64,000 bases of DNA from Anaerolineae bacterium (GTDB lineage Bacteria > Chloroflexota > Anaerolineae > UBA1429): positions 2,592,001-2,656,000 of the forward strand of contig OY776562.1 of NCBI GenBank assembly GCA_963675785.1, written 5' to 3'. Positions 10,780 through 21,607 of the stretch are shown here, piece by piece; within the stretch, counting starts at the first letter, position 1, and every line of letters begins with the position of its first letter. Made by a program: the position numbers and the translations under genes. Under the pieces are notes generated by a model that saw only the letters and a list, made by a program, of their open reading frames with translations, had not been told where the DNA came from and did no database searches.

Positions 10780-11847
10780 CTAGCAGTAAGCGCTTGAATC
10801 GTATTGACCATCCCATCGGGATTCGCGCTCATCAATCGAACTCGATAGCTCATCCGAAGAATCCAGCGATTCTTCTTCATCGATGCGCATACTCAATCCA
10901 AGCCGATGATTTACACTATCGATGCGTAAAATCCTTACTCGGACAACCTGTCCAGGAGAAACAACCTCTGAAGGATGCTCCAGATGGTGTGCCGAAATCT
11001 CTGAAAGATGAACAAGACCTTCTAATCCTTCTTCGATCTGAGCGAATGCCCCGAACCCTACAATATTGGTGATACGGGCATCCAGCTCTTGGCCCAGGGT
11101 GTACTTTTGTTCGACCACAGTCCATGGATCGGGTTGCATGCGTTTGAGGCTGAGTGCGACGCGTCTTCTGTCTCGGTCCACACTCATCACATACACTTGA
11201 ACCCGATCACCAATGGAGAGAATCTCGCGTGGATGCGTTACTCTCCCCCAAGAAAGCTCGGAAAGATGCACCAGACCATCGACTCCGCCCAGATCGACAA
11301 AAGCACCAAAATCACAGATATTGCTGACCACACCCGGGCATATATCACCAGGGGCTAGTTCATCCAGAACATGTTCGCCATCTTTGGCGCCCCAACGCGT
11401 GGCGCGCTCTGAAAAGACGAGGCGATTGCGAGAGCGATCGAGCTCGATGACTTTGAGGGAAACTTGCTTGCCAACCCAACGAGAGAGTTTTTCCTCTCGC
11501 GAAGCATCATCATCAAAGACAGGGACATCCGCCAACTGAGAAGCGGGGACAAAACCTTGTAACCGATCCCAACGAACAAGCAAGCCACCCCGGTTCCAGC
11601 CAGTGACCGTTGCGCTTACAACCTCGCCCGCATCAAAAACACTTTGAGCTTCTGCCCAGGCCTTGTCCAGCAAAGAAAATGTCGGCTGATAATCAACGTT
11701 GGGATTTACAAACGGCATGGATTGACCGTCCACAACGTCTGGTTGTGCATCCAAATCAACTTCAGGCACATCAGAAACATCCCGTCGTTCCTTGGCCCGT
11801 CTGATAAACCTCGCCATAGAGGTCAGAGAAAATTGTTGATCATCCAT
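10780..11847 (-). CDS. S1 RNA-binding protein with three S1 domains (ribosomal protein bS1-like, possibly a paralogue)
   Basis: NRGGLLV..GFVPASQL, FGAFVDLGGVDGLVHLSELSW, FGAFAQIEEGLEGLVHLSEI. Confidence 0.88.
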   Translation of the reverse strand: MDDQQFSLTSMARFIRRAKERRDVSDVPEVDLDAQPDVVDGQSMPFVNPNVDYQPTFSLLDKAWAEAQSVFDAGEVVSATVTGWNRGGLLVRWDRLQGFVPASQLADVPVFDDDASREEKLSRWVGKQVSLKVIELDRSRNRLVFSERATRWGAKDGEHVLDELAPGDICPGVVSNICDFGAFVDLGGVDGLVHLSELSWGRVTHPREILSIGDRVQVYVMSVDRDRRRVALSLKRMQPDPWTVVEQKYTLGQELDARITNIVGFGAFAQIEEGLEGLVHLSEISAHHLEHPSEVVSPGQVVRVRILRIDSVNHRLGLSMRIDEEESLDSSDELSSSIDERESRWDGQYDSSAYC

Positions 11848-12038
11848 GCACTTCCCCTTTCAAGCAGCAAACATCCACGTCACCCACCCCAGCCATAGAT
11901 ACGCAAAAACGGACCCCACCAGTCAGCAACAGCTCTGTTGCACCGTACTGGAGATCCGTTTCACTGAGCACCGCATAACAAGTTTAGTATGCAAACCCTA
12001 ACTCGCATGAGACTCTAGGGGGGCAACAATACGTGAAT

Positions 12039-12067
12039 ATTATAGGCCAATCTGTCAAATATGTCAA
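12039..12067 (-). promoter_or_regulatory. Consensus sigma70/sigmaA promoter for the S1 gene
   Basis: TTGACA-17 nt-TATAAT on the minus strand. Confidence 0.8.
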
Positions 12068-12180
12068 TCATCTAGGTATTTATACCTAGAAAAATCTTGT
12101 TATTTGATTTGCACAGAACCCCGAGTCGAGTAAACTCCGCTGGCAGTTCATCAATTGAACATGTCCAGGAGGTAGTCGCC

Positions 12181-13290
12181 GTGAAGACTGTTAAAATCGG
12201 TATCATTGGATGTGGAAATATCTCATCCTCATATTTTGAGACAGCAAATGCCTTTGGCGCCATCGAATGTGTGGCCTGTGCAGACCTTGACCTCGAACGC
12301 GCCCAAGCGAGAGCGGAAGAATTTGGGATTCCTTGTGCTTGTACTGTAGACGAGCTCTTGGCCAACAAGGAAATCGAAATCGTTATCAACCTGACCACTC
12401 CTCAGGCCCACCGAACAGTGAGTGTTGCTGCGCTGCAAGCGGGTAAGCACGTCTACACTGAAAAGCCGCTGGCCGTAACCCCAGAAGATGGCATGGCCAT
12501 CCTGGAAGCGGCCCAAAAAGCCAACTTGCGGATTGGTTGCGCCCCGGGTACACCTCTCGGTGCCGGGCTGCAAACTTGCCGCAAGCTCATTGATGATGGC
12601 GTCATTGGCACACCCGTTGCCTGCTCGGCCTTTATGATGAGTCACGGCCACGAGAGCTGGCATCCCGATCCTGCTTATTATTACCAAATCGGCGCTGGCC
12701 CCATGTTCGATATGGGCCCCTATTATCTCACCGCTCTTACCACCCTGCTTGGTCCTATTTCGCGCATCTGCGGCACAGCCGGTATTCAGATCCCCGAACG
12801 CACCATCACCAGTCAGCCTAAATACGGCGAAAAGATCATCGTGCGCACACCAGACCATGTAGCCGGCACCATGACCTTTGCCAGCGGCGCCATTGGCACC
12901 ATCATTACCACCTTTGCCACCTGGCCCTCGCAACTGCCACGCATCGAGATCTATGGCACCGAAGGAACACTCAGCGTGCCCGATCCCAACACACTAGGTG
13001 GCCCCATCAAGCTTTGCAAGGCGGGCAGCAAAGAATGGGAAGAGATTGAACTAGCCTTCCCACACAGTGTGCGCAAAGATATGTGGGGACTCGGCGTGGT
13101 AGATATGGCCTATGCGATCCGCAGCAATCGTCCCCAGCGCATCACGGGCAAGCAGGCGTACCATGTACTCGAGTGTATGCAGGCATTTCTCAAATCGTCC
13201 GAAGAAGCCCGTTATTACGACGTCCAGAGCACTTTTGACCCTCCCGCACCATTGCCGTTGGGACTCGACGCTTATGAACTCGATGAATGA
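12181..13290 (+). CDS. Gfo/Idh/MocA family oxidoreductase
   Basis: IGIIGCGNIS Rossmann motif, HVYTEKP, GPMFDMGPY; SD AGGAGG before GTG 12181. Confidence 0.92.
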   Translation: MKTVKIGIIGCGNISSSYFETANAFGAIECVACADLDLERAQARAEEFGIPCACTVDELLANKEIEIVINLTTPQAHRTVSVAALQAGKHVYTEKPLAVTPEDGMAILEAAQKANLRIGCAPGTPLGAGLQTCRKLIDDGVIGTPVACSAFMMSHGHESWHPDPAYYYQIGAGPMFDMGPYYLTALTTLLGPISRICGTAGIQIPERTITSQPKYGEKIIVRTPDHVAGTMTFASGAIGTIITTFATWPSQLPRIEIYGTEGTLSVPDPNTLGGPIKLCKAGSKEWEEIELAFPHSVRKDMWGLGVVDMAYAIRSNRPQRITGKQAYHVLECMQAFLKSSEEARYYDVQSTFDPPAPLPLGLDAYELDE

Positions 13291-13308
13291 TCAAAACGAG
13301 GGCTTGGC

Positions 13309-13337
13309 TTGACAGACATACAGCCCTGCTGTAGACT
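13309..13337 (+). promoter_or_regulatory. Promoter of the arg leader/operon
   Basis: TTGACA-17 nt-TAGACT. Confidence 0.75.
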
Positions 13338-13361
13338 GTTGCTATTATGCAAGGGAAAAAG

Positions 13362-13415
13362 ATGATCGTGATCGCTAACTTTCAGAGGCGCAGCATGAGG
13401 ACTAGGCCGGACTAA
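13362..13415 (+). CDS. Putative arginine attenuator leader peptide MIVIANFQRRSMRTRPD
   Basis: SD-like AAGGGA; 17 codons with 4 Arg (AGG, CGC, AGG, AGG) clustered before the stop; in-frame upstream ATG at 13347. Confidence 0.75.
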   Translation: MIVIANFQRRSMRTRPD

Positions 13416-13456
13416 TGTCTGGGTAGTTGCGCTTGAGTTGGGAACATGATACCCAC

Positions 13457-13486
13457 AAGGGCTCTCCAGACGGAGAGCCCTTTTTT
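13457..13486 (+). terminator. Attenuator terminator upstream of argC
   Basis: AAGGGCTCTCC-agac-GGAGAGCCC-TTTTTT, 23 nt before the argC ATG. Confidence 0.88.
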
Positions 13487-13509
13487 CGTTTATGGCCAGG
13501 AGCAGAACT

Positions 13510-14532
13510 ATGATCAAAGCAGGGGTCTTGGGCGCTACAGGATTCGCGGGTAACGAGCTCGTAGATATTCTTTTACGGCATCCCGAGGTTGAAATTGCCT
13601 TTCTTTCTTCCGCAAGCTATGCTGGAAAACGCTATTGTGATACCTGCAGGTCAACCTTTAAGATGACTTTGGTGACCCCTGAGGCCGTGCCCTATGCAAA
13701 CGCTGATATAGTCTTTTTATGCCTGCCTCATGGTGCCTCATCTGCTTATGCCAAGCTAGCCATAGAGGCTGGAGCCTGCTGTATTGATCTCTCGGCGGAT
13801 TTCCGCTTGCGAGATCTAAGCATCTACGAAACATGGTACGGCCAACATCAGGCACCCGAACTACTATCGCAAGCGGTTTACGGCCTCACCGAGGTTTATC
13901 GCGACAGCTTGGTCGGGGCCAAATTGGTAGCTAACCCGGGTTGCTACCCCACCGGTCCCCTGCTAGCGCTCATTCCCTGGCTCAAAGCCGGTTTGATCAA
14001 ATCCAAGCACCTCATTATTGATGCCAAGTCGGGCACATCTGGAGCGGGGGCCAAACCGTCCGAAAAAACGCACTTTATGAACGTGCATGAGAATTTCTCG
14101 GCGTATAACATCGGTCGGCTACATCGCCATGTGCCTGAAATCGAACAGGAACTTGCTGGTGCAGCCGAACAGGATATTCAGATCGTTTTTAGCCCTCACT
14201 TGCTGCCGATTACACGTGGCATTCTCTCCAATATTTATGTCACCGCAATAGATGGTACTAGTGAGCAAGACCTACGCGCGAGTTGGGAAACAACCTATGC
14301 CGATGAGCCCTTTATCACGCTATGTGCAGCGGGCAAACTTCCCGAATTGGCAGATGTGGCCCGTACCAACGCCTGCCACATGGCGTTGACACCCGCTGGA
14401 CGTGAAGGTGAGTTCATTGTCACCACGGCCATCGACAATCTGGTCAAAGGCGCTTCTGGCCAGGCCGTGCAGAACATGAACGTGATGTTTGGACTAGAAG
14501 AAACCCTGGCGCTGACCGGAGGCAAAGCCTAA
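13510..14532 (+). CDS. argC: N-acetyl-gamma-glutamyl-phosphate reductase
   Basis: GATGFAG, DLSADFRL, ANPGCYPT, SGTSGAG, DNLVKGASGQAVQNMN. Confidence 0.96.
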   Translation: MIKAGVLGATGFAGNELVDILLRHPEVEIAFLSSASYAGKRYCDTCRSTFKMTLVTPEAVPYANADIVFLCLPHGASSAYAKLAIEAGACCIDLSADFRLRDLSIYETWYGQHQAPELLSQAVYGLTEVYRDSLVGAKLVANPGCYPTGPLLALIPWLKAGLIKSKHLIIDAKSGTSGAGAKPSEKTHFMNVHENFSAYNIGRLHRHVPEIEQELAGAAEQDIQIVFSPHLLPITRGILSNIYVTAIDGTSEQDLRASWETTYADEPFITLCAAGKLPELADVARTNACHMALTPAGREGEFIVTTAIDNLVKGASGQAVQNMNVMFGLEETLALTGGKA

Positions 14533-15308
14533 TGCCACCTATCCTCGTTCTCAAAGTTGGTGGGGCCGAGCTAGCAGACCGAGAAGCACTTGAGTTGTTC
14601 GTTCAGGCTGCTGTGGCTGCAACTCGGAAGGCCCATCTCATCATTGTTCACGGCGGCGGCCCTGAAATCGCTGCAACCCAGCAAGCCTTGGGCCTAGAGC
14701 CACGCTTCGCCGACGGCCTGCGCATCACCGATGACGCCTCTTTGCGCGTAGCCGAGATGGTACTCTCTGGTCTGGTGAACAAGCGCTTGGCTGGCGCCCT
14801 GACTATCGCGGGAGCCCCAGCTCTGGGCATCTCCGGCATCGATGCAGGCCTGCTTACTGCCCAGCGGCTTACTCCCCAAGGCCAGAATATTGGCTGGGTG
14901 GGCGACATACACAGCGTCAAGGTCGGATTATTGATCAGCTTGTCTTCACTAGGTCTAATTCCCGTGGTCTCACCCATCTCAATGGATGAGACAGGGCAGC
15001 ATTACAACGTTAACGCCGATTCAGCAGCGCTGGCCATCGCTCAAGCACTCAGCGCCGATGAACTGGTCTTTCTCACCAACGTACCTGGTGTACTCCTCAA
15101 TGCCCAACTCTTGTCCACGCTAGATGGCACCGACATCGAAAACCTGATTGCCGAGGGTACTATTTCCGGAGGCATGATCCCAAAAACACGCTCCGCCGTA
15201 CAAGCAACCCGCCAGGGTGTGGCCTGCGTACGTATCACTAACCTAGAAGGACTCGCCACCGACAGCGGTACCCGCGTCGTTCTGCACAAAGTACAGGAGC
15301 AAGCCTGA
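14532..15308 (+). CDS. argB: Acetylglutamate kinase
   Basis: VLKVGG, VHGGG, GLRITD, NVNAD, GGMIPK. Confidence 0.94.
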   Translation: MPPILVLKVGGAELADREALELFVQAAVAATRKAHLIIVHGGGPEIAATQQALGLEPRFADGLRITDDASLRVAEMVLSGLVNKRLAGALTIAGAPALGISGIDAGLLTAQRLTPQGQNIGWVGDIHSVKVGLLISLSSLGLIPVVSPISMDETGQHYNVNADSAALAIAQALSADELVFLTNVPGVLLNAQLLSTLDGTDIENLIAEGTISGGMIPKTRSAVQATRQGVACVRITNLEGLATDSGTRVVLHKVQEQA

Positions 15309-16507
15309 TGACGAACACACAAGAAATCCGCGACCTAGAGAACAAGTACGTACTCCAAACCTATTCACGAGCGCCCTTTGTGCTCGACCATGGTGAAGGC
15401 GTCTATCTCTATGACACCGATGGTAAAGCCTATTTGGACTTTGTCAGTGGTATTGCGGTAAACGCTTTGGGCTATGGGGACCTAGAAGTACGCGAAGCCA
15501 TCGTCGATCAAGTCGACAAGCTGATCCACGTCTCCAATTTGTATTACACCCAGCCACAGGCTGAACTGGCCGAACTGTTGGTCAAGACATCCTTCGCCGA
15601 CCGCATCTTTTTCTGCAACTCGGGCGCCGAGTCCGTTGAAGGAGCCATCAAGTTTGCTCGTAAATGGGCAAAAACTCATTACGGCAAGGGCAAGAACTGT
15701 TTTGTCTCGCTCTCGGGTGCATTCCACGGACGCACCATGGGGGCCTTAGCCCTTACGCCGCGTCCTCATTATCAGGACGCCTTCCGGCCGCTCATGCCTG
15801 GCGCACGTTTGGCCGAATTCAATAACCTCGATTCGGTGGCAGCCCAGATGGACGAATCCGTTTGCGCCATCATCGCTGAACCGGTGCAAGGCGAAGGGGG
15901 CGTGAATCCTGCCGATCCCGAATTTCTTCAGGGACTGCGCGAACTGTGCGACCGCTATCACGCCCTGTTGATCTTTGATGAGGTGCAATGTGGCCTGGGC
16001 CGCACCGGCAGCCTCTGGGCACATCAACAATACGATATCGAACCGGATATGATGACCACGGCCAAACCCGTCGGGGCAGGCCTCCCCATGGGGCTGGTTT
16101 TCTTAAAGCAGCATGTGGCTGATGCCATTGAACCCGGCGATCACGCCAGTACCTTTGCCGGTGGGCCGGTGGTTTGCGCCGCCTCAAAGGTTGTCGTATC
16201 GCGCGTTGCCAATCCCAGTTTTCTAGCACACGTACAAGAGATGGGTGACTATCTCGTCGCCGGCTTGAAGGATATCGCTTCACGCCAGCCTGTCGTTGAA
16301 GAGGTACGTGGCTTGGGTTTGATCATCGGCATTCAGTGCAGCTCCAGTGTTGGCCCTGTGGTCAGGGCCTGCTATGAAGCCGGTTTGCTCACCTGTAGTG
16401 CAGGACCCAACGTGCTGCGTCTGTTACCGCCACTGATTATTGAAAAGGGCGACGCCGACAAGGCACTCGCCATGATTGAGGAGGCTTTGCGTGTCATCGG
16501 GGAATAA
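15308..16507 (+). CDS. argD: Acetylornithine aminotransferase
   Basis: NSGAES, FHGRT, EPVQGEGG, DEVQCGLGRTG, TTAK PLP lysine. Confidence 0.94.
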   Translation: MTNTQEIRDLENKYVLQTYSRAPFVLDHGEGVYLYDTDGKAYLDFVSGIAVNALGYGDLEVREAIVDQVDKLIHVSNLYYTQPQAELAELLVKTSFADRIFFCNSGAESVEGAIKFARKWAKTHYGKGKNCFVSLSGAFHGRTMGALALTPRPHYQDAFRPLMPGARLAEFNNLDSVAAQMDESVCAIIAEPVQGEGGVNPADPEFLQGLRELCDRYHALLIFDEVQCGLGRTGSLWAHQQYDIEPDMMTTAKPVGAGLPMGLVFLKQHVADAIEPGDHASTFAGGPVVCAASKVVVSRVANPSFLAHVQEMGDYLVAGLKDIASRQPVVEEVRGLGLIIGIQCSSSVGPVVRACYEAGLLTCSAGPNVLRLLPPLIIEKGDADKALAMIEEALRVIGE

Positions 16508-16508
16508 A

Positions 16509-17009
16509 GTGCTCTGCCAGGAAGGTGCTATCATCGTTCGTAAGGCGCATATTGATGATGTGCCGGCCATGGCAGAGCTGATCAACAGCTATGGGCGTCA
16601 AGGCATCATGCTGGCACGCTCACGTCACCAGCTCTATCAATTCATCCGAGATTTTGTTGTTGCAGAGAATGAGCAAGGTCGTATCATTGGATGTGGTGCG
16701 CTTTCGATTGTCTGGTCCGATCTCTGCGAAATCCGCTCTCTCGCCGTCCAGGACGGATGGCTCGGCAAAGGTGTCGGTGGTCTTATGGTTCGGGCGCTCG
16801 CCCGTGAAGCGCAACAGCTCGGTGTCAGCCGAGTGTTTGCACTCACCTACCGCGTGGGATTTTTTGAGCACTTGGGATTCCATCAGGTCCCCCACGCAGA
16901 GCTGCCCCACAAGATTTGGGGAGATTGTTTGAATTGCCCCAAATATCCCAACTGTGATGAAGTTGCACTCATGATGCAACTAGACGCCGAACACAAGGAG
17001 AACAACTAA
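16509..17009 (+). CDS. argA: Short GNAT N-acetylglutamate synthase (ArgA-type)
   Basis: [30 protein letters not shown]; located inside arg operon. Confidence 0.82.
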
Positions 17010-18217
17010 TGTCCGTCAAAAAGTGTGTACTGGCCTATTCCGGTGGACTCGATACCTCAGTCATCGTGAGCTGGCTCAAAGAAAACTATGGCTGTGAAGT
17101 CATCTGTGTCACCGCCGACCTAGGGCAGAACGAGGAACTGGACGGCCTGGAGGCAAAAGCCTTGGCTACCGGTGCCAGCAAGATCTATATCGAAGATATG
17201 CGCGAAGAGTTTGTCAAAGATTATATCTGGCCGACACTCAAAGCCGGCGCCATTTATGAGCGTGATTACCTCTTGGGAACCTCATTTGCCCGCCCACTCA
17301 TTGCCAAGCGTATGGTCGAAATCGCCGAAAAAGAAGGGGCCGACGCTGTAGCCCACGGCTGCACTGGCAAGGGAAACGATCAAGTTCGATTTGAACTTTC
17401 TTTCAAGGCCTTGAATCCCAAACTAACCATCATCGCCCCCTGGCGCGAATGGGACATCCGCTCGCGTGAAGACGCCCTGGAATACGCTGCCGCACACAAT
17501 ATTCCGGTAGCTCAGAGCAGAAAATCCATCTACAGTCGTGACCGCAACATCTGGCACATGAGCCACGAAGGCGGCATCCTCGAAGATCCTTGGGAAGAAC
17601 CTCTTGAAGATATGTTCGTGCTGACCAAGAGCCCTGAAGAAGCCCCGAATGTGCCCGAATATATCGAGATAGGTTTTGAAGAAGGCGCGCCCGTCACCTT
17701 GAATGGCACCAGCTTGAGCCCCCTACAGATGGTTACATCATTGAACGAGCTCGGCGGCAAACACGGCATTGGCCGGGTTGATATGGTAGAAAACCGCCTG
17801 GTGGGTATTAAATCGCGTGGCGTCTACGAGACGCCCGGTGGCACTATACTCTATGCCGCCCACAAGGGCCTTGAAAACCTTACTCTCGACGGTGAAACCT
17901 TACACTATCGAGACCTGCTCTCGCAGAAATACGCCGAAGTGGTTTACAACGGCCGTTGGTTCACCCCCTTGCGTGAGGCTCTTGATGCCGCTATCAATGT
18001 AATCGAAAAGACCGCCACCGGCACCGTGCGCGTCAAGCTCTACAAGGGTCAGGCCACCGTCGTCGGTCGTAAGTCACCCTATAGCCTCTATCGTGAAGAC
18101 TATGCCACCTTTGGTGAGGATGATGTATACAACCAGGCCGATGCAGAGGGCTTTATCAATCTCTTTGGCCTTTCCATGAAGGTGCGCGCTTTGCTCAACA
18201 AAGAAGGTCAGGAATAA
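17009..18217 (+). CDS. argG: Argininosuccinate synthase
   Basis: [34 protein letters not shown]. Confidence 0.97.
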
Positions 18218-18220
18218 ACC

Positions 18221-19594
18221 ATGCCGGCACTCTGGGGAGGACGATTCACCGAGGATACTGACGCGCTCATGTGGGCCTTTAATGCTTCCATCAGTGTCGA
18301 TCAGCGCATGGCGTTGGTCGACATTTGGGGCAGCCAAGCCTACGCACGCGCCATCCAAAAGGCCAGCGTGCTCACAGAGAACGAGCTAACTAAACTCGTC
18401 AGCGGCTTGGATGTAGTCGCTGACGAGTTTGAGCAAGGCACCTTTGCCTTGGCCGATAAGGACGAAGACATCCATACCGCTGTCGAACGGCGTTTAGGCG
18501 AGATCATCGGCCCACTGGCTGGCAAGCTACATACCGGCCGTAGCCGTAACGATCAAGTGGCTACCGACGTGCGCCTTTACATGTTAGAAGCGCTGGGACA
18601 CCTCAGTGAAATGCTTGACGCCACCTGCAAAACCATTGTGGACAAAGCCGCCGAGCATATCGATGTACTGATGCCAGGCTATACTCATATGCAGCCCGCG
18701 CAACCGGTGCGTTTCTCTCATTGGCTCATGTCCTACTTTTGGATGTTGGACCGCGATCGAGAGCGCTTGGCCGACCTGACCAAGCGGGTATCGTGCTGCC
18801 CCTTGGGAGCCGGTGCTTTGGCTGGCAACGCTTACGGTATTGACCGTCAGGCTCTGGCCAAAGACCTAGGATTCGATGACATCACATGGAATAGCATGGA
18901 TGCTGTCGCCGACCGTGACATGATCATCGAATGCCTGTCTTGGGGAGCGCAGATTGGTTTGCACCTCAGTCGCCTGGCCGAAGATATCATCATCTGGTCG
19001 ACGCGCGAGTTTGGTTTTGTGCACCTCTCAGATCGCTATTCGACCGGATCGAGCATCATGCCCCAGAAAAAGAATCCCGACAGTATGGAGCTGGTGCGCG
19101 GCAAAACCGGCCGTCTGCTGGCCAACCTGATCCAGATCATGGCCGTATGCAAGGGCATCCCTTCCACCTATGACAAGGACCTGCAGGAAGACAAAGAAGC
19201 CCTGTTCGACACGCTGGATACCTTGGGGATGCTGCTGCCCATCACGGCTGGTGTTGTCGCCACCATGACGATCGATGCGGACAAGATGGCCGCCGCATTG
19301 AGTGATGAACTCATCGCCACCGATATCGCTGATTATTTGGTGAAAAAAGGGCTCCCCTTCCGCGAAGCGCATGGTATAGTTGGCAGATTGGTACTACTAA
19401 GTGAGGACAAAGGCGTAGGTTTGTGCAGCCTTTCCTTGGAGGATTATCGCTCGACTTGCGAATTGTTTGAGGCCGATGTGCAAGGGGTGTTGTCTTTTGA
19501 GGCCTCTGTAGAGGCGAGGGACACAGCAGGAGGCACAGCACGTTCGGCTGTGTTAGAACAAATCACCGAGGCGCGGAAGCGTTTAGCCCAGTAA
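18221..19594 (+). CDS. argH: Argininosuccinate lyase
   Basis: LWGGRF, HTGRSRNDQ, GSSIMPQKKNPD. Confidence 0.97.
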   Translation: MPALWGGRFTEDTDALMWAFNASISVDQRMALVDIWGSQAYARAIQKASVLTENELTKLVSGLDVVADEFEQGTFALADKDEDIHTAVERRLGEIIGPLAGKLHTGRSRNDQVATDVRLYMLEALGHLSEMLDATCKTIVDKAAEHIDVLMPGYTHMQPAQPVRFSHWLMSYFWMLDRDRERLADLTKRVSCCPLGAGALAGNAYGIDRQALAKDLGFDDITWNSMDAVADRDMIIECLSWGAQIGLHLSRLAEDIIIWSTREFGFVHLSDRYSTGSSIMPQKKNPDSMELVRGKTGRLLANLIQIMAVCKGIPSTYDKDLQEDKEALFDTLDTLGMLLPITAGVVATMTIDADKMAAALSDELIATDIADYLVKKGLPFREAHGIVGRLVLLSEDKGVGLCSLSLEDYRSTCELFEADVQGVLSFEASVEARDTAGGTARSAVLEQITEARKRLAQ

Positions 19595-19622
19595 AAAAGC
19601 ATATCACGTGCTTTATCAAACT

Positions 19623-19655
19623 AGGGGGGGCTGACAAAGATCAGGCCCCCCTTTT
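19623..19655 (+). terminator. Intrinsic terminator after argH
   Basis: AGGGGGGGCTGA-caaaga-TCAGGCCCCCC-TTTT. Confidence 0.75.
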
Positions 19656-19844
19656 ACATTTGGGCTACAAAATCTTTTTTCCTTTGAAAAAGGGAAAGGG
19701 GGTATAAATACCTCGAATAGAATAATCCGCCTCATAAAAAGGAACCTCCTCCCATTGCCCCTCGTATACATACAAGATAACCAGTCCTTTTAGCAGAATG
19801 CCAAGTCTATGTCTAGAGAAAGACACTTGTAGAGAGGAAGTGAA

Positions 19845-20492
19845 ATGTTTGAACACAAACTAATGAACAGTGCTAAAAGCTATTGGCTAGTTGCTGGCCT
19901 GGGGTTCGCAGCTGGGGTATTGACGGTACTATTGGATTTCTTTCCCCCAGATACCTTATGGACCTGGAGCTCTTTTTCAGGATGCTTTGGCTTTTGGATC
20001 GTCACCACGACGATTCTCATTTTCTTGAGTGATTCACGCAAGGTCGCAGGGTGGAACGCATTTATCTATCTGAGCTCAATGAGCATTGCTTTCTATCTTT
20101 CCAAAGCAGTGGTTTACAAGTTCGTCTATTCTGCATCCCAATTTGAGCTAGAGTTTCTCTCCTTGACAGCTTTTTGGCTCGCAGCCTCGGCAATATGTGG
20201 CCTCTCCGCAAGTTTTGTATGGATAGGTCAGGGAGAGGGATGGTGGCCTGCTTTTTGGCGTGCATTGCCCATTGCAGGATTGATCATTGAAGCAACAAAA
20301 CTCGTTGCTTCAGTCATTGTCAATCAAAAATACTTGGCCCAAGCCATCTTTGATATTGTTTTCGCCTTTGTCCTATTTTTCGTTCTGAACAAAAACAGAT
20401 CACAAAAGTCTCGAACGTTTGTCTTCATCGTTCCAATTTCGGCGCTTGTCATCTTTCTAGTCTACAAAACAGGAACACTTGTTCAATATTAG
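19845..20492 (+). CDS. Multi-pass membrane protein (DUF6518-like)
   Basis: About 7 hydrophobic segments; AT-richer than neighbours; family assignment from recall only. Confidence 0.6.
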   Translation: MFEHKLMNSAKSYWLVAGLGFAAGVLTVLLDFFPPDTLWTWSSFSGCFGFWIVTTTILIFLSDSRKVAGWNAFIYLSSMSIAFYLSKAVVYKFVYSASQFELEFLSLTAFWLAASAICGLSASFVWIGQGEGWWPAFWRALPIAGLIIEATKLVASVIVNQKYLAQAIFDIVFAFVLFFVLNKNRSQKSRTFVFIVPISALVIFLVYKTGTLVQY

Positions 20493-20584
20493 GAGTGCCT
20501 TTTGCCAAGACGCAAAACAGCAGCATAGGATTACATCTGCTGCTGTTCACATGATTGAACTGACACTTGGCCTCGGCCAAAGAT

Positions 20585-21607
20585 TCAGAACTGGCCAGCA
20601 ATGACCGCTCCGCAGTAACCGCAACGATCGCCGTTCATGTGTTTGCCGCGTATCACATATCCAGAACGCTCGATAATCACTTTGCCACACACTGGGCAGA
20701 TCGTATCCTCACCCTGGCTGCCAGGCACATTGCCAATGTAGACATGTTTCAAGCCGTTTTCGTAACCGATCTCGCGGGCACGTACCAGGCGAGCAGGCGG
20801 CGTTGGCGACACATCCAACATGCGAAACGTTGGGTGAAAGCGACTCACGTGCCAGGGCGTATCCGGCCCCAGTTCGTGGGCAATAAAACTGGCAACATCC
20901 GCCAATTCTTCATCGCTGTCGTTCTTGCCAGGAATAACCAGCGTAGTCACCTCTAACCAGATACCTCGCTCTTTGATTAACTTTAGACTATCCAACACTG
21001 GCTGAAGCCGTGCGCCGCACTCTTGCCGATAAAAATCATCGCGAAAGCTCTTGAGGTCCACGTTCGCTGCATCGAGTAGAGGTGGCACCTCTCGCTCCGA
21101 AACCACTTCCAGCATCTCGCGGCTCATGTAGCCGTTGGTCACAAACACGTTGGCGATCTTGGCTTCACGAGCCAGTTGCGCCGTATCTCTTGCATATTCA
21201 AAAAAAACAGTCGGCTCTGTATAGGTATAGGCGATGGAACGACACTTGTAACGCAGGGCCGCGACGACCAAAGCCTCAGGAGAAACATACTGCCCCTTGG
21301 GAACAGCGTCATCCCGCAATTGCGAGATGTCGGCGTTCTGACAAAAGGTACAGCGAAAATTGCACCCTGCCGTAGCAAACGAAAACGCATCACTGCCCGG
21401 GTAAAAATGAAAAAGCGGTTTCTTCTCGATGGGGTCTACTGCCTGGGCAACAGGATAACCATACACCACTGTGTGCAAAACGCCGCCTTCGTTGCGCCGC
21501 ACACCGCAGATTCCGGTGCCGCCCTCGCGAATGAGGCACTGGTGCGCGCACAAACGACAGCGCACATCGTTACCCGGTAGTGTGTCAAACAATAAGGCTT
21601 CCCTCAT
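20585..21607 (-). CDS. amrS: AmmeMemoRadiSam system radical SAM enzyme
   Basis: CxxCxxxC N-terminus, DPIEKKPLFHF, GCNFRCTFCQN, AYTYTEP, HVSRFHP, YIGNV, C-terminal CxxC pairs. Confidence 0.92.
   Translation of the reverse strand: MREALLFDTLPGNDVRCRLCAHQCLIREGGTGICGVRRNEGGVLHTVVYGYPVAQAVDPIEKKPLFHFYPGSDAFSFATAGCNFRCTFCQNADISQLRDDAVPKGQYVSPEALVVAALRYKCRSIAYTYTEPTVFFEYARDTAQLAREAKIANVFVTNGYMSREMLEVVSEREVPPLLDAANVDLKSFRDDFYRQECGARLQPVLDSLKLIKERGIWLEVTTLVIPGKNDSDEELADVASFIAHELGPDTPWHVSRFHPTFRMLDVSPTPPARLVRAREIGYENGLKHVYIGNVPGSQGEDTICPVCGKVIIERSGYVIRGKHMNGDRCGYCGAVIAGQF

Follow-up and report, generated by a model that had tools for sequence, protein, structure and literature searches.

Arrangement of the argC leader and the operon behind it

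The window analysed here is a 64,000-nucleotide (nt) stretch of DNA from an Anaerolineae bacterium (assembly GCA_963675785.1, contig OY776562.1, positions 2,592,001 to 2,656,000 of the forward strand). It contains an operon of arginine biosynthesis genes that begins with argC, and the region just upstream of argC (positions 13309 to 13509 of the window) was examined as a candidate transcription attenuator. All six genes of the operon scored over the curated NCBIfam cut-offs.

13510-19594, + strand: operon proposed to be regulated, argC-argB-argD-GNAT-argG-argH
13510-14532, + strand: argC (NCBIfam TIGR01850)
14532-15308, + strand: argB (NCBIfam TIGR00761)
15308-16507, + strand: argD (NCBIfam TIGR00707)
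16476-17009, + strand: GNAT gene, argA-like (NCBIfam NF005840)
17009-18217, + strand: argG (NCBIfam NF001770)
18221-19594, + strand: argH (NCBIfam TIGR00838)

A ribosome-binding site (AGGAG, 13498-13502) places the start of argC at 13510, not at 13492 as in the list of open reading frames (ORFs). Within the 220 bases 5' of argC lie, in this order, a promoter, a leader ORF, a long hairpin and an intrinsic terminator.

13309-13337, + strand: sigma-70-type promoter, TTGACA (13309-13314), N17, TAGACT (13332-13337), with 10 of 12 consensus matches
13362-13415, + strand: leader ORF of 17 codons, ATG at 13362, TAA at 13413-13415, peptide MIVIANFQRRSMRTRPD followed by the stop
13386-13406, + strand: putative regulatory Arg codons, AGG (13386-13388), CGC (13389-13391), AGG (13398-13400) and AGG (13404-13406)
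13365-13412, + strand: segment 1, the 5' arm of the protector hairpin in the minimum-energy fold, with the core CCGGAC (13407-13412) within the leader ORF
13417-13450, + strand: segment 2, by folding a partner of segment 1 or segment 3, with the core GUCUGG(G) (13417-13423)
13456-13471, + strand: segment 3, the terminator 5' arm and loop, complementary to segment 2 (CAAG..GC..UCCAGAC)
13457-13488, + strand: intrinsic terminator 3:4, with its stem at 13457-13482 and loop AGAC, then a U-run

A preliminary description of this DNA had proposed the promoter at 13309-13337 and a 17-codon upstream ORF at 13362-13415 with four Arg codons, three of them AGG, and each of these features is present at those positions. 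Arg thus accounts for 4 of the 17 codons. The leader ORF is preceded by a weak GGGA (13353-13356) that resembles a Shine-Dalgarno (SD) sequence, and an alternative in-frame ATG at 13347 would extend it to 22 codons.

Mutually exclusive pairings in the leader RNA

The minimum-energy fold of the RNA from 13345 to 13495 reached -58.4 kcal/mol (z = -4.59), and none of 200 shuffled sequences folded as well. In this fold, 13365-13412 pairs with 13417-13450 to form the protector hairpin (1:2). The pairings of GCGCA, ACTA and CCGGAC that had been proposed for the protector are all included, and the helix in this fold is longer than the one described. When segment 1 was omitted from folding, 13417-13435 paired with 13456-13471 at -20.0 kcal/mol, as had been predicted for the antiterminator (2:3); GUCUGGG (13417-13423) pairs with UCCAGAC (13465-13471), and CUUG (13432-13435) with CAAG (13456-13459). 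The terminator (3:4), placed earlier at 13457-13486, was recovered as the stem and U-run listed above. Its stem has 11 pairs, 7 of which are G-C, and it tops the 12 terminator-like sites listed in 12000-21000 both for pairs and for G-C pairs. The three structures are mutually exclusive and of comparable stability in this sequence (1:2, -20.3 kcal/mol; 2:3, as given above; 3:4, -20.7 kcal/mol).

Conservation of the leader upstream of argC

ArgC homologues were present in 39 of 41 related genomes, and their upstream regions were read. ArgC proteins across these genera are only 52-61% identical, and nearly all genomes of the family carry the pattern ..CUG AGG AGG AGC nnn AGG nnn nnn CCGGAC n4-5 GUCUGGAUAGU .. 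GCCUGGGC .. CCAGCUCUCCAGACGGAGAGCUGG UUUUUU. A covariance model, R1, was built from 25 argC leaders. R1 matched 42 of the 42 genomes of the family, and the best match in each genome was the sole one of at least 51 bits. This best match lies just 5' of the ArgC match in 24 genomes; for the other 18, the 350-base stretch around the R1 match was read and the next gene was not named. The alignment of argC upstream regions that the preliminary description had proposed as a check bore out an Arg-rich upstream ORF, three pairing segments and a terminator, all kept in 42 of 42 family genomes. The promoter was likewise retained: TTGAC[A/T]-N16-18-TAnnnT was found in 22 of 24 family loci, 80-113 nt 5' of the CCGGAC core (98-113 nt in 21).

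The exact pattern was also scanned for in one genome per species across 185,579 species, which returned 41 stretches. Full model matches accounted for 37 of these, all of them labelled as Anaerolineae, Anaerolineales or Chloroflexota metagenome-assembled genomes. Three stretches (labelled Actinomycetes, Arsenicibacter and Rokuibacteriota) had no model match and one labelled Desulfobacterales had a weak match; all four were taken as chance or unclear.

Other families of the class have leaders unrelated to R1 upstream of argC, and a terminator follows each of them. Locus L024 has the run CGA CGA CGA, L026 has CGT CGT CGT, and L028 has a CGT CGT pair in a frame with 8 Arg codons (L numbers denote loci, and G and C numbers genomes and contigs). 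The argC upstream region L025, from another such family, showed nothing of this kind, and L029 was too short for judgement.

Two loci stand apart. In L002 (G021:C28), the Arg leader lacks a TTGACA promoter of its own and directly follows a sequence that is tRNA-like by eye and has a promoter-like site (TTGCCA-17-TATACT), and this leader may be co-transcribed with the tRNA-like sequence. The R1 match L098 (G063:C72) was taken as a false positive: it lies on what by eye is a tRNA gene, and the terminator behind that gene resembles those of the attenuators (..CUUUCCAGAUGGGGAG.., then a U-run). The CCAGA-loop terminator, as at 13457-13482, may be a general form in these genomes that attenuators have exploited.

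Codon content and reading frame of the leader ORF

The preliminary description had remarked that AGG looks rare in the neighbouring genes. Over 2035 long ORFs, no other sense codon of the genome is in fact used less often: AGG occurs 3.15 times per 1000 codons and accounts for 5.5% of the codons for Arg. Of the 102 Arg codons in the six operon genes 5 are AGG, compared with 3 of 4 in the leader; the binomial probability of this leader count at the genome frequency is about 6e-4. The genome has one gene for tRNA-Arg(CCU). According to the theory of Elf and colleagues (2003), codons of rare isoacceptors are reportedly the most sensitive to starvation and are favoured by attenuator leaders.

Among the 42 family leaders, 39 were anchored automatically, and the 11 codons before the CCGGAC core were taken as the codon block. 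At least 3 Arg codons were present in the block of 38 of these 39 leaders and a Lys codon in none, and 38 of 39 had an in-frame ATG. AGG made up 113 of the 142 Arg codons. The three leaders that were not anchored (L009, L022 and L023) have short Arg-containing frames by eye. Short frames that open with ATG and stop upstream of or within segment 2 were counted in 41 leaders: the frame of the Arg codons (frame 0) has one in 38 leaders, and each of the other frames has one in a single leader. Leader peptides differ in their N-terminus and in length (11-28 codons) without loss of the frame.

Two positions predominate for the stop codon: 20 of the 39 leaders have it 13-16 nt upstream of segment 2, and 16 have it inside that segment. 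In the remaining 3, including the leader in the window, it precedes segment 2 by 2-4 nt. Since half of the leaders end before CCGGAC, the reading of the core as 'PDxWSG' reflects a constraint on the RNA and not on the peptide.

Predicted effect of ribosome position on the antiterminator

To model a stalled ribosome, transcripts ending at segment 3 were folded after removal of the ribosome-covered bases, up to 12 or 15 nt past the first base of the codon in the A site. The mean pairing of the terminator 5' arm was judged too blunt as a readout, and the values given here, for the window sequence and over 25 sequences, are probabilities that the antiterminator core forms (GUCUGG paired to CCAGAC).

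Free RNA: 0.00 for the window sequence; mean of 0.11 over 25
A site at the first or second Arg position: 0.01-0.26 for the window sequence; mean of about 0.55-0.60 over 25
A site at the third Arg position: 0.98 for the window sequence; mean of 0.97 over 25
Ribosome at the stop codon: 0.00 for the window sequence; 0.00 in 14 of 25

In this model, a ribosome stalled at the Arg codons of the window sequence is predicted to free segment 2 for the antiterminator; neither RNA free of ribosomes nor a ribosome that has reached the stop codon is predicted to do so.

Known regulators of arginine biosynthesis

Arginine biosynthesis is classically under the control of ArgR, and of T-boxes in some Firmicutes. 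The preliminary description had seen no T-box here, and an Rfam scan of 12800-14000 (cmscan, E up to 10) agreed with it, returning neither a T-box (RF00230) nor any other family on the + strand. The lone match was a weak one to the L2 leader, on the minus strand inside argC. A check of the genome for argR, also suggested earlier, gave 0 matches to the ArgR domains PF01316 and PF02863 in the single-contig genome that holds the window, which is 94.8% complete by marker genes. The C-terminal domain PF02863 was detected in 0 of 42 family genomes and in 8 of 14 control genomes; ARG boxes were not searched for.

Lysine and proline versions of the same scaffold

A second R1 match was found in the same genome (G000:C1:820647-820769, + strand, equivalent to L032:1501-1623; E = 7.7e-9), with the same core and terminator. 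Its leader ORF (L032:1454-1555) starts with TTG behind GAGGTG and reads ..LSKKSKSKKPDPWSG up to the stop, and a promoter-like TTGACA lies at L032:1380. The regulatory block of this leader is AAG AAA AGC AAG TCG AAG AAG. The genes behind it encode LysW (TIGR01206, 77 bits) and homocitrate synthase (TIGR02146, 488 bits), and the alpha-aminoadipate lysine cluster to which they belong includes an argC paralogue (825762-826790) about 5 kb 3' of the leader. Second copies were present in relatives as well. Of 19 such copies 17 were anchored. Three or more Lys codons occur in 16 of these (66 AAG and 1 AAA), and the stop codon lies inside segment 2 in all 17.

In a sample of the class, R1 matched 87 of 151 genomes, and 80 loci from 58 genomes were inspected (20 loci from 7 genomes and 60 from 51 further genomes). 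The genes downstream of the 60 loci were as follows.

argG: 14 loci
argC-like: 15 loci
HMGL-like / homocitrate synthase (hcs): 12 loci
LysX: 6 loci
Other families: 4 loci
Not assigned: 9 loci

In this 60-locus set, Arg codons outnumbered Lys codons in the 11-codon block at 25 of the 29 loci before argG or argC-like genes, and Lys outnumbered Arg at 1. Before hcs and LysX, Lys outnumbered Arg in 19 of 21 matches and Arg outnumbered Lys in 1. These figures are plain counts, and related genomes are not independent. Two argC-like loci with a low Arg count (L154 and L160) have AGG AGG by eye, one position out of frame with the core.

A third version has Pro-rich frames. Before proS genes of the TIGR00408 type, three loci read ..NPGSPNPTPDRGSG, ..SPNSPNPTPDCRSG and ..KPLPGGPGPRPDPGSG, each followed by a stop, and the frame ..ESPTSPDRGSG, also ending at a stop, precedes the gene of a class II aminoacyl-tRNA synthetase that we take, judging by its N-terminus, to be a bacterial-type ProRS. 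Two Pro-type copies precede LOG-like and metallophosphatase genes. The Pro-type loci are L084, L092 and L095 (G127:C164, G145:C89 and G179:C245), and also L189, L174 and L186. R1 has no match at the ProRS gene of the genome that holds the window, and this ProRS is of another type than TIGR00408.

The shared core of the scaffold reads ..CCG GAC nnn nGG UCU GGA UAG.., followed by a terminator with CCAGAC in its 5' arm and loop. In these comparisons the codon block is the sole part of the scaffold that tracks the downstream pathway, which fits ribosome-mediated sensing and not a ligand-binding RNA. On balance, and with some reservation, we favour the reading that one scaffold has spread by duplication in the Anaerolineae and has been re-aimed by exchange of its regulatory codon block, giving homologous, codon-programmable attenuators that do ArgR-like work. 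Arg versions would then stand before argC, argG and a homocitrate/citrate-synthase-like gene, Lys versions before lysW, hcs and lysX, sometimes in tandem, and Pro versions before proS. If this is true, these loci offer the attenuation model a naturally occurring set of codon-swap mutants.

Several further observations concern the lysine loci. Two Lys-codon attenuators of the scaffold, one behind the other, precede homocitrate synthase at L083 (G127:C190:88-398), L166, L170 and L191. Arg-type frames (..NRIRRARAKPGHLSG up to the stop, and ..ARSPRRKKPD..) precede a LysW-like and a LysX-like gene at L035 (G012:C118) and L202 (G030:C287), and these frames suggest that some LysW-type clusters in the class may serve arginine rather than lysine synthesis. 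Between the terminator and lysW lies a further conserved motif, roughly CAUCAnCGCCCGGnCCCGCAGUGUCGCCCCGGUGAUG, with ends that are able to pair with each other (CAUCAUCG and CGGUGAUG). It is not evident in the genome that holds the window; it follows the Lys attenuator in many relatives, among them L033, L034, L040, L042, L043, L047 and L048, and in L033 the motif lies about 90-125 nt past the leader stop.

Shorter and weaker R1 matches with AGG AGG frames (e.g. ..ESRRPGRLQGASPE up to the stop) were seen at L049-L053, L055, L056 and L059. They precede a conserved HMGL-like synthase that begins 'MLEFSK...' and falls below every NCBIfam cut-off; it may be a Re-citrate or homocitrate synthase. The homologue in the genome that holds the window (G000:C1:889868) is preceded by a promoter and a terminator-like hairpin and has no Arg frame.

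Pairing potential and covariation

The proposed pairs were formed in 89% of alignment cells for 1:2 and in 90.9% for 2:3; when the partners were slid by 1-3 columns, pairs were formed in 14-55% (32-44% for 2:3). Over 83 aligned copies of the scaffold, the segment 2 hexamer GTCTGG is present in 80, and all 6 core pairs can form in 77 for 1:2 and in 74 for 2:3. In segments 1 and 3, the only variants seen (CCGGAC, CCAGAC, CCAGGC and CCAGAU) retain pairing with segment 2 by way of G-U pairs. With RNAalifold, the 25 leaders yielded only the upper 1:2 hairpin and the terminator, the latter with changes on both sides at 5 pairs.

A number of results weigh against an attenuator that senses arginine, and the sparse covariation is one of them. 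The preliminary description had looked to the argC upstream alignment for compensatory changes, and these turned out to be few and did not exceed shuffles. In the 2:3 helix no pair is changed on both sides, and shuffles reached the observed scores; the 1:2 helices have 3 such changes, and 72 of 500 shuffles were as high. Three-way compensation over the 83 copies has essentially one candidate, L089 (GCCUGG, CCGGGG and CCAGGC). Compensatory changes are few because the three-way pairing is conserved and not varied, as a segment with two partners is expected to be frozen; the structural support therefore rests on conserved pairing potential and not on covariation. The weak Shine-Dalgarno sequence of the leader in the window is a further such point, as is the occurrence of an SD-like 4-mer before the in-frame ATG in only 25 of 38 leaders. 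AGGAGG is itself SD-like and might slow ribosomes independently of tRNA supply. The argF and argJ genes of the same genome lie elsewhere, directly behind other genes, and do not have such a leader.

The folding model also gave two adverse results. For the 11 of 25 relatives in which the stop codon is 13-16 nt short of segment 2, placing a ribosome there gave the antiterminator at 0.62-0.99; termination under plenty must rely in these on ribosome release and re-pairing of 1:2. Once the full terminator has been transcribed, it dominates the equilibrium at every ribosome position, so antitermination must be kinetic, beyond what folding shows. A terminator that wins at equilibrium is expected of classical attenuators, in which the choice is kinetic.

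Proposed mechanism and alternative explanations

The analysis shows the anatomy of the leader and its conservation, the preference for a single frame, the agreement of the codons with the pathway encoded downstream, and the energetics of switching. The preliminary description had held that a ribosome stalled at Arg codons masks segment 1 and allows readthrough into argC, and this reading gains support from the conservation, the frame specificity, the lack of a detected argR and the ribosome folding model. Its strongest support was not foreseen there, namely that copies of the same scaffold have Lys codons where lysine genes follow and Pro-rich frames where proS follows. We conclude that the element is, with high probability, a classical ribosome-mediated leader-peptide transcription attenuator for arginine, which senses charged tRNA-Arg and mainly the rare isoacceptor that reads AGG.

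We infer that the leader is translated, that transcription terminates at the hairpin and that the outcome responds to arginine. Transcription would start a few bases past 13337, and a ribosome would translate the 17-codon leader. When arginine is plentiful, the ribosome would reach the stop codon at 13413-13415 and cover the start of segment 2, or leave and let 1:2 re-pair; segment 3 would then be free to form the 3:4 terminator, and RNA polymerase would stop at the U-run, short of argC. Under a shortage of charged tRNA-Arg, the ribosome would stall at the AGG and CGC codons at 13386-13406 and cover segment 1. Segment 2 would pair with segment 3 once the latter is transcribed, the terminator would not form, and transcription would read through into argC-argB-argD-GNAT-argG-argH.

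Three other explanations were weighed. The leader could be an RNA that binds a ligand or a protein (a riboswitch or the target of a regulator) and sets the terminator choice in that way, with the short frame incidental. The near-invariance of AGGAGGAGC, CCGGAC, GUCUGGAUAGU and CUCUCCAGACGG across genera, at the ArgC identity given above, is unusually high for a leader-peptide attenuator and would suit such an RNA, as would the weak covariation; the three-way pairing constraint, however, accounts for this conservation without a ligand. A bound RNA also leaves unexplained why the short frame occupies frame 0 in 38 of 41 leaders versus 1 of 41 in each other frame, and a binding pocket is not expected to read as cognate codons, whereas the codon block follows the pathway through Arg, Lys and Pro. 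With unrelated Arg-run leaders before argC in other families, and no Rfam family matching the leader, we regard this explanation as very improbable. Slightly less so, though still improbable, is a leader ORF that senses the general status of translation and not arginine supply, either through a pause at AGGAGG as an internal SD-like sequence or through Rho-dependent or translational coupling. The SD-like hexamer and the conservation at the nucleotide level are in keeping with it, and the Salmonella speF leader, with consecutive Arg codons, acts by way of Rho and RNase G according to passages of PMC6386406. The Lys and Pro versions, however, retain the architecture without AGGAGG, the leader in the window has AGG CGC instead, leaders in other families use CGA or CGT runs, and a canonical hairpin and U-run are conserved directly after segment 3.

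The hairpin at 13457-13482 might alternatively be the terminator of the upstream oxidoreductase-like gene, which ends at 13290, with argC served by an unregulated promoter of its own and the rest due to chance. The hairpin does lie about 170 nt past the stop codon of that gene and on the same strand. A consensus promoter nevertheless stands between that stop codon and the hairpin and is kept in the 22 of 24 family loci mentioned above, and the sequence 5' of the promoter differs among relatives (it is tRNA-like by eye in L002) whereas the leader stays with argC. As R1 also matches 42 of 42 family genomes, this explanation is hardly credible.

Relation to known attenuators and implications

Textbook examples of leader-peptide attenuation concern Trp, His, Leu, Thr, Phe and Ile/Val. 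Like trpL, hisL, leuL, thrL, pheL and ilvL, the argC leader has a short ORF with codons of the regulated amino acid. It shares with the enterobacterial attenuators the segments 1-4 with exclusive 1:2, 2:3 and 3:4 pairings, an intrinsic terminator right before the first biosynthetic gene and, in the window, a stop codon placed for a terminating ribosome to block segment 2. It differs from them in that the amino acid sensed would be arginine and in that only 3-5 regulatory codons are present, mostly one rare codon (AGG), with no long run. Unlike the enterobacterial leaders, it has no sequence similarity to any Rfam leader family, and its RNA core is common to attenuators for other amino acids.

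The control of arginine synthesis by ArgR/ARG-box repression and by Arg T-boxes performs the same task, feedback control of arginine biosynthesis; the sensor here would be the translating ribosome. A Lys-codon leader-peptide attenuator with a terminator was reportedly described by Tsubouchi et al. in 2005 (J Biol Chem) before the alpha-aminoadipate lysine cluster of Thermus thermophilus. The Lys copy at G000:C1:820647-820769 resembles that attenuator by description, although the Thermus case concerns lysine and not arginine, and to our knowledge a scaffold shared between Arg and Lys has not been reported for Thermus. Passages of PMC1262725 list histidine, threonine and phenylalanine as served by attenuators, and Tyr and Arg by T-boxes. 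In Salmonella, two consecutive Arg codons in orf34 (speFL) of speF report arginine supply and select between alternative mRNA structures, as set out in the parts of PMC6386406 that concern this leader. The same parts give its target as ornithine decarboxylase and its output as Rho-dependent termination, unfolding of the ribosome-binding site and RNase G decay, and in these it differs from the intrinsic 3:4 terminator proposed here.

The preliminary description had considered an arginine attenuator of this type little or not described, and no description of a leader-peptide attenuator of arginine biosynthesis was found in a search of full-text literature that did not extend to most subscription journals. 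The mechanism is classical; the literature searched has no report of arginine as the amino acid, of this lineage, or of a single scaffold that serves several amino acids.

The comparative data indicate that a Chloroflexota lineage in which no ArgR was detected, comprising this locus and 41 family relatives, may control arginine synthesis by ribosome-sensed attenuation, with the least-used Arg codon as its preferred sensor. The Lys and Pro versions provide experiment-free evidence for the mechanism, since the codon block alone changes with the pathway, and the shared scaffold shows how attenuators may gain new specificities. R1 also serves as a searchable RNA model for the annotation of mostly uncultured genomes.

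Elsewhere in the window, a promoter that matches the consensus TTGACA-17-TATAAT at 12 of 12 positions lies at 12039-12067 on the minus strand. It faces a gene for an S1-domain (rpsA-like) protein at 10780-11847, away from the arg region.

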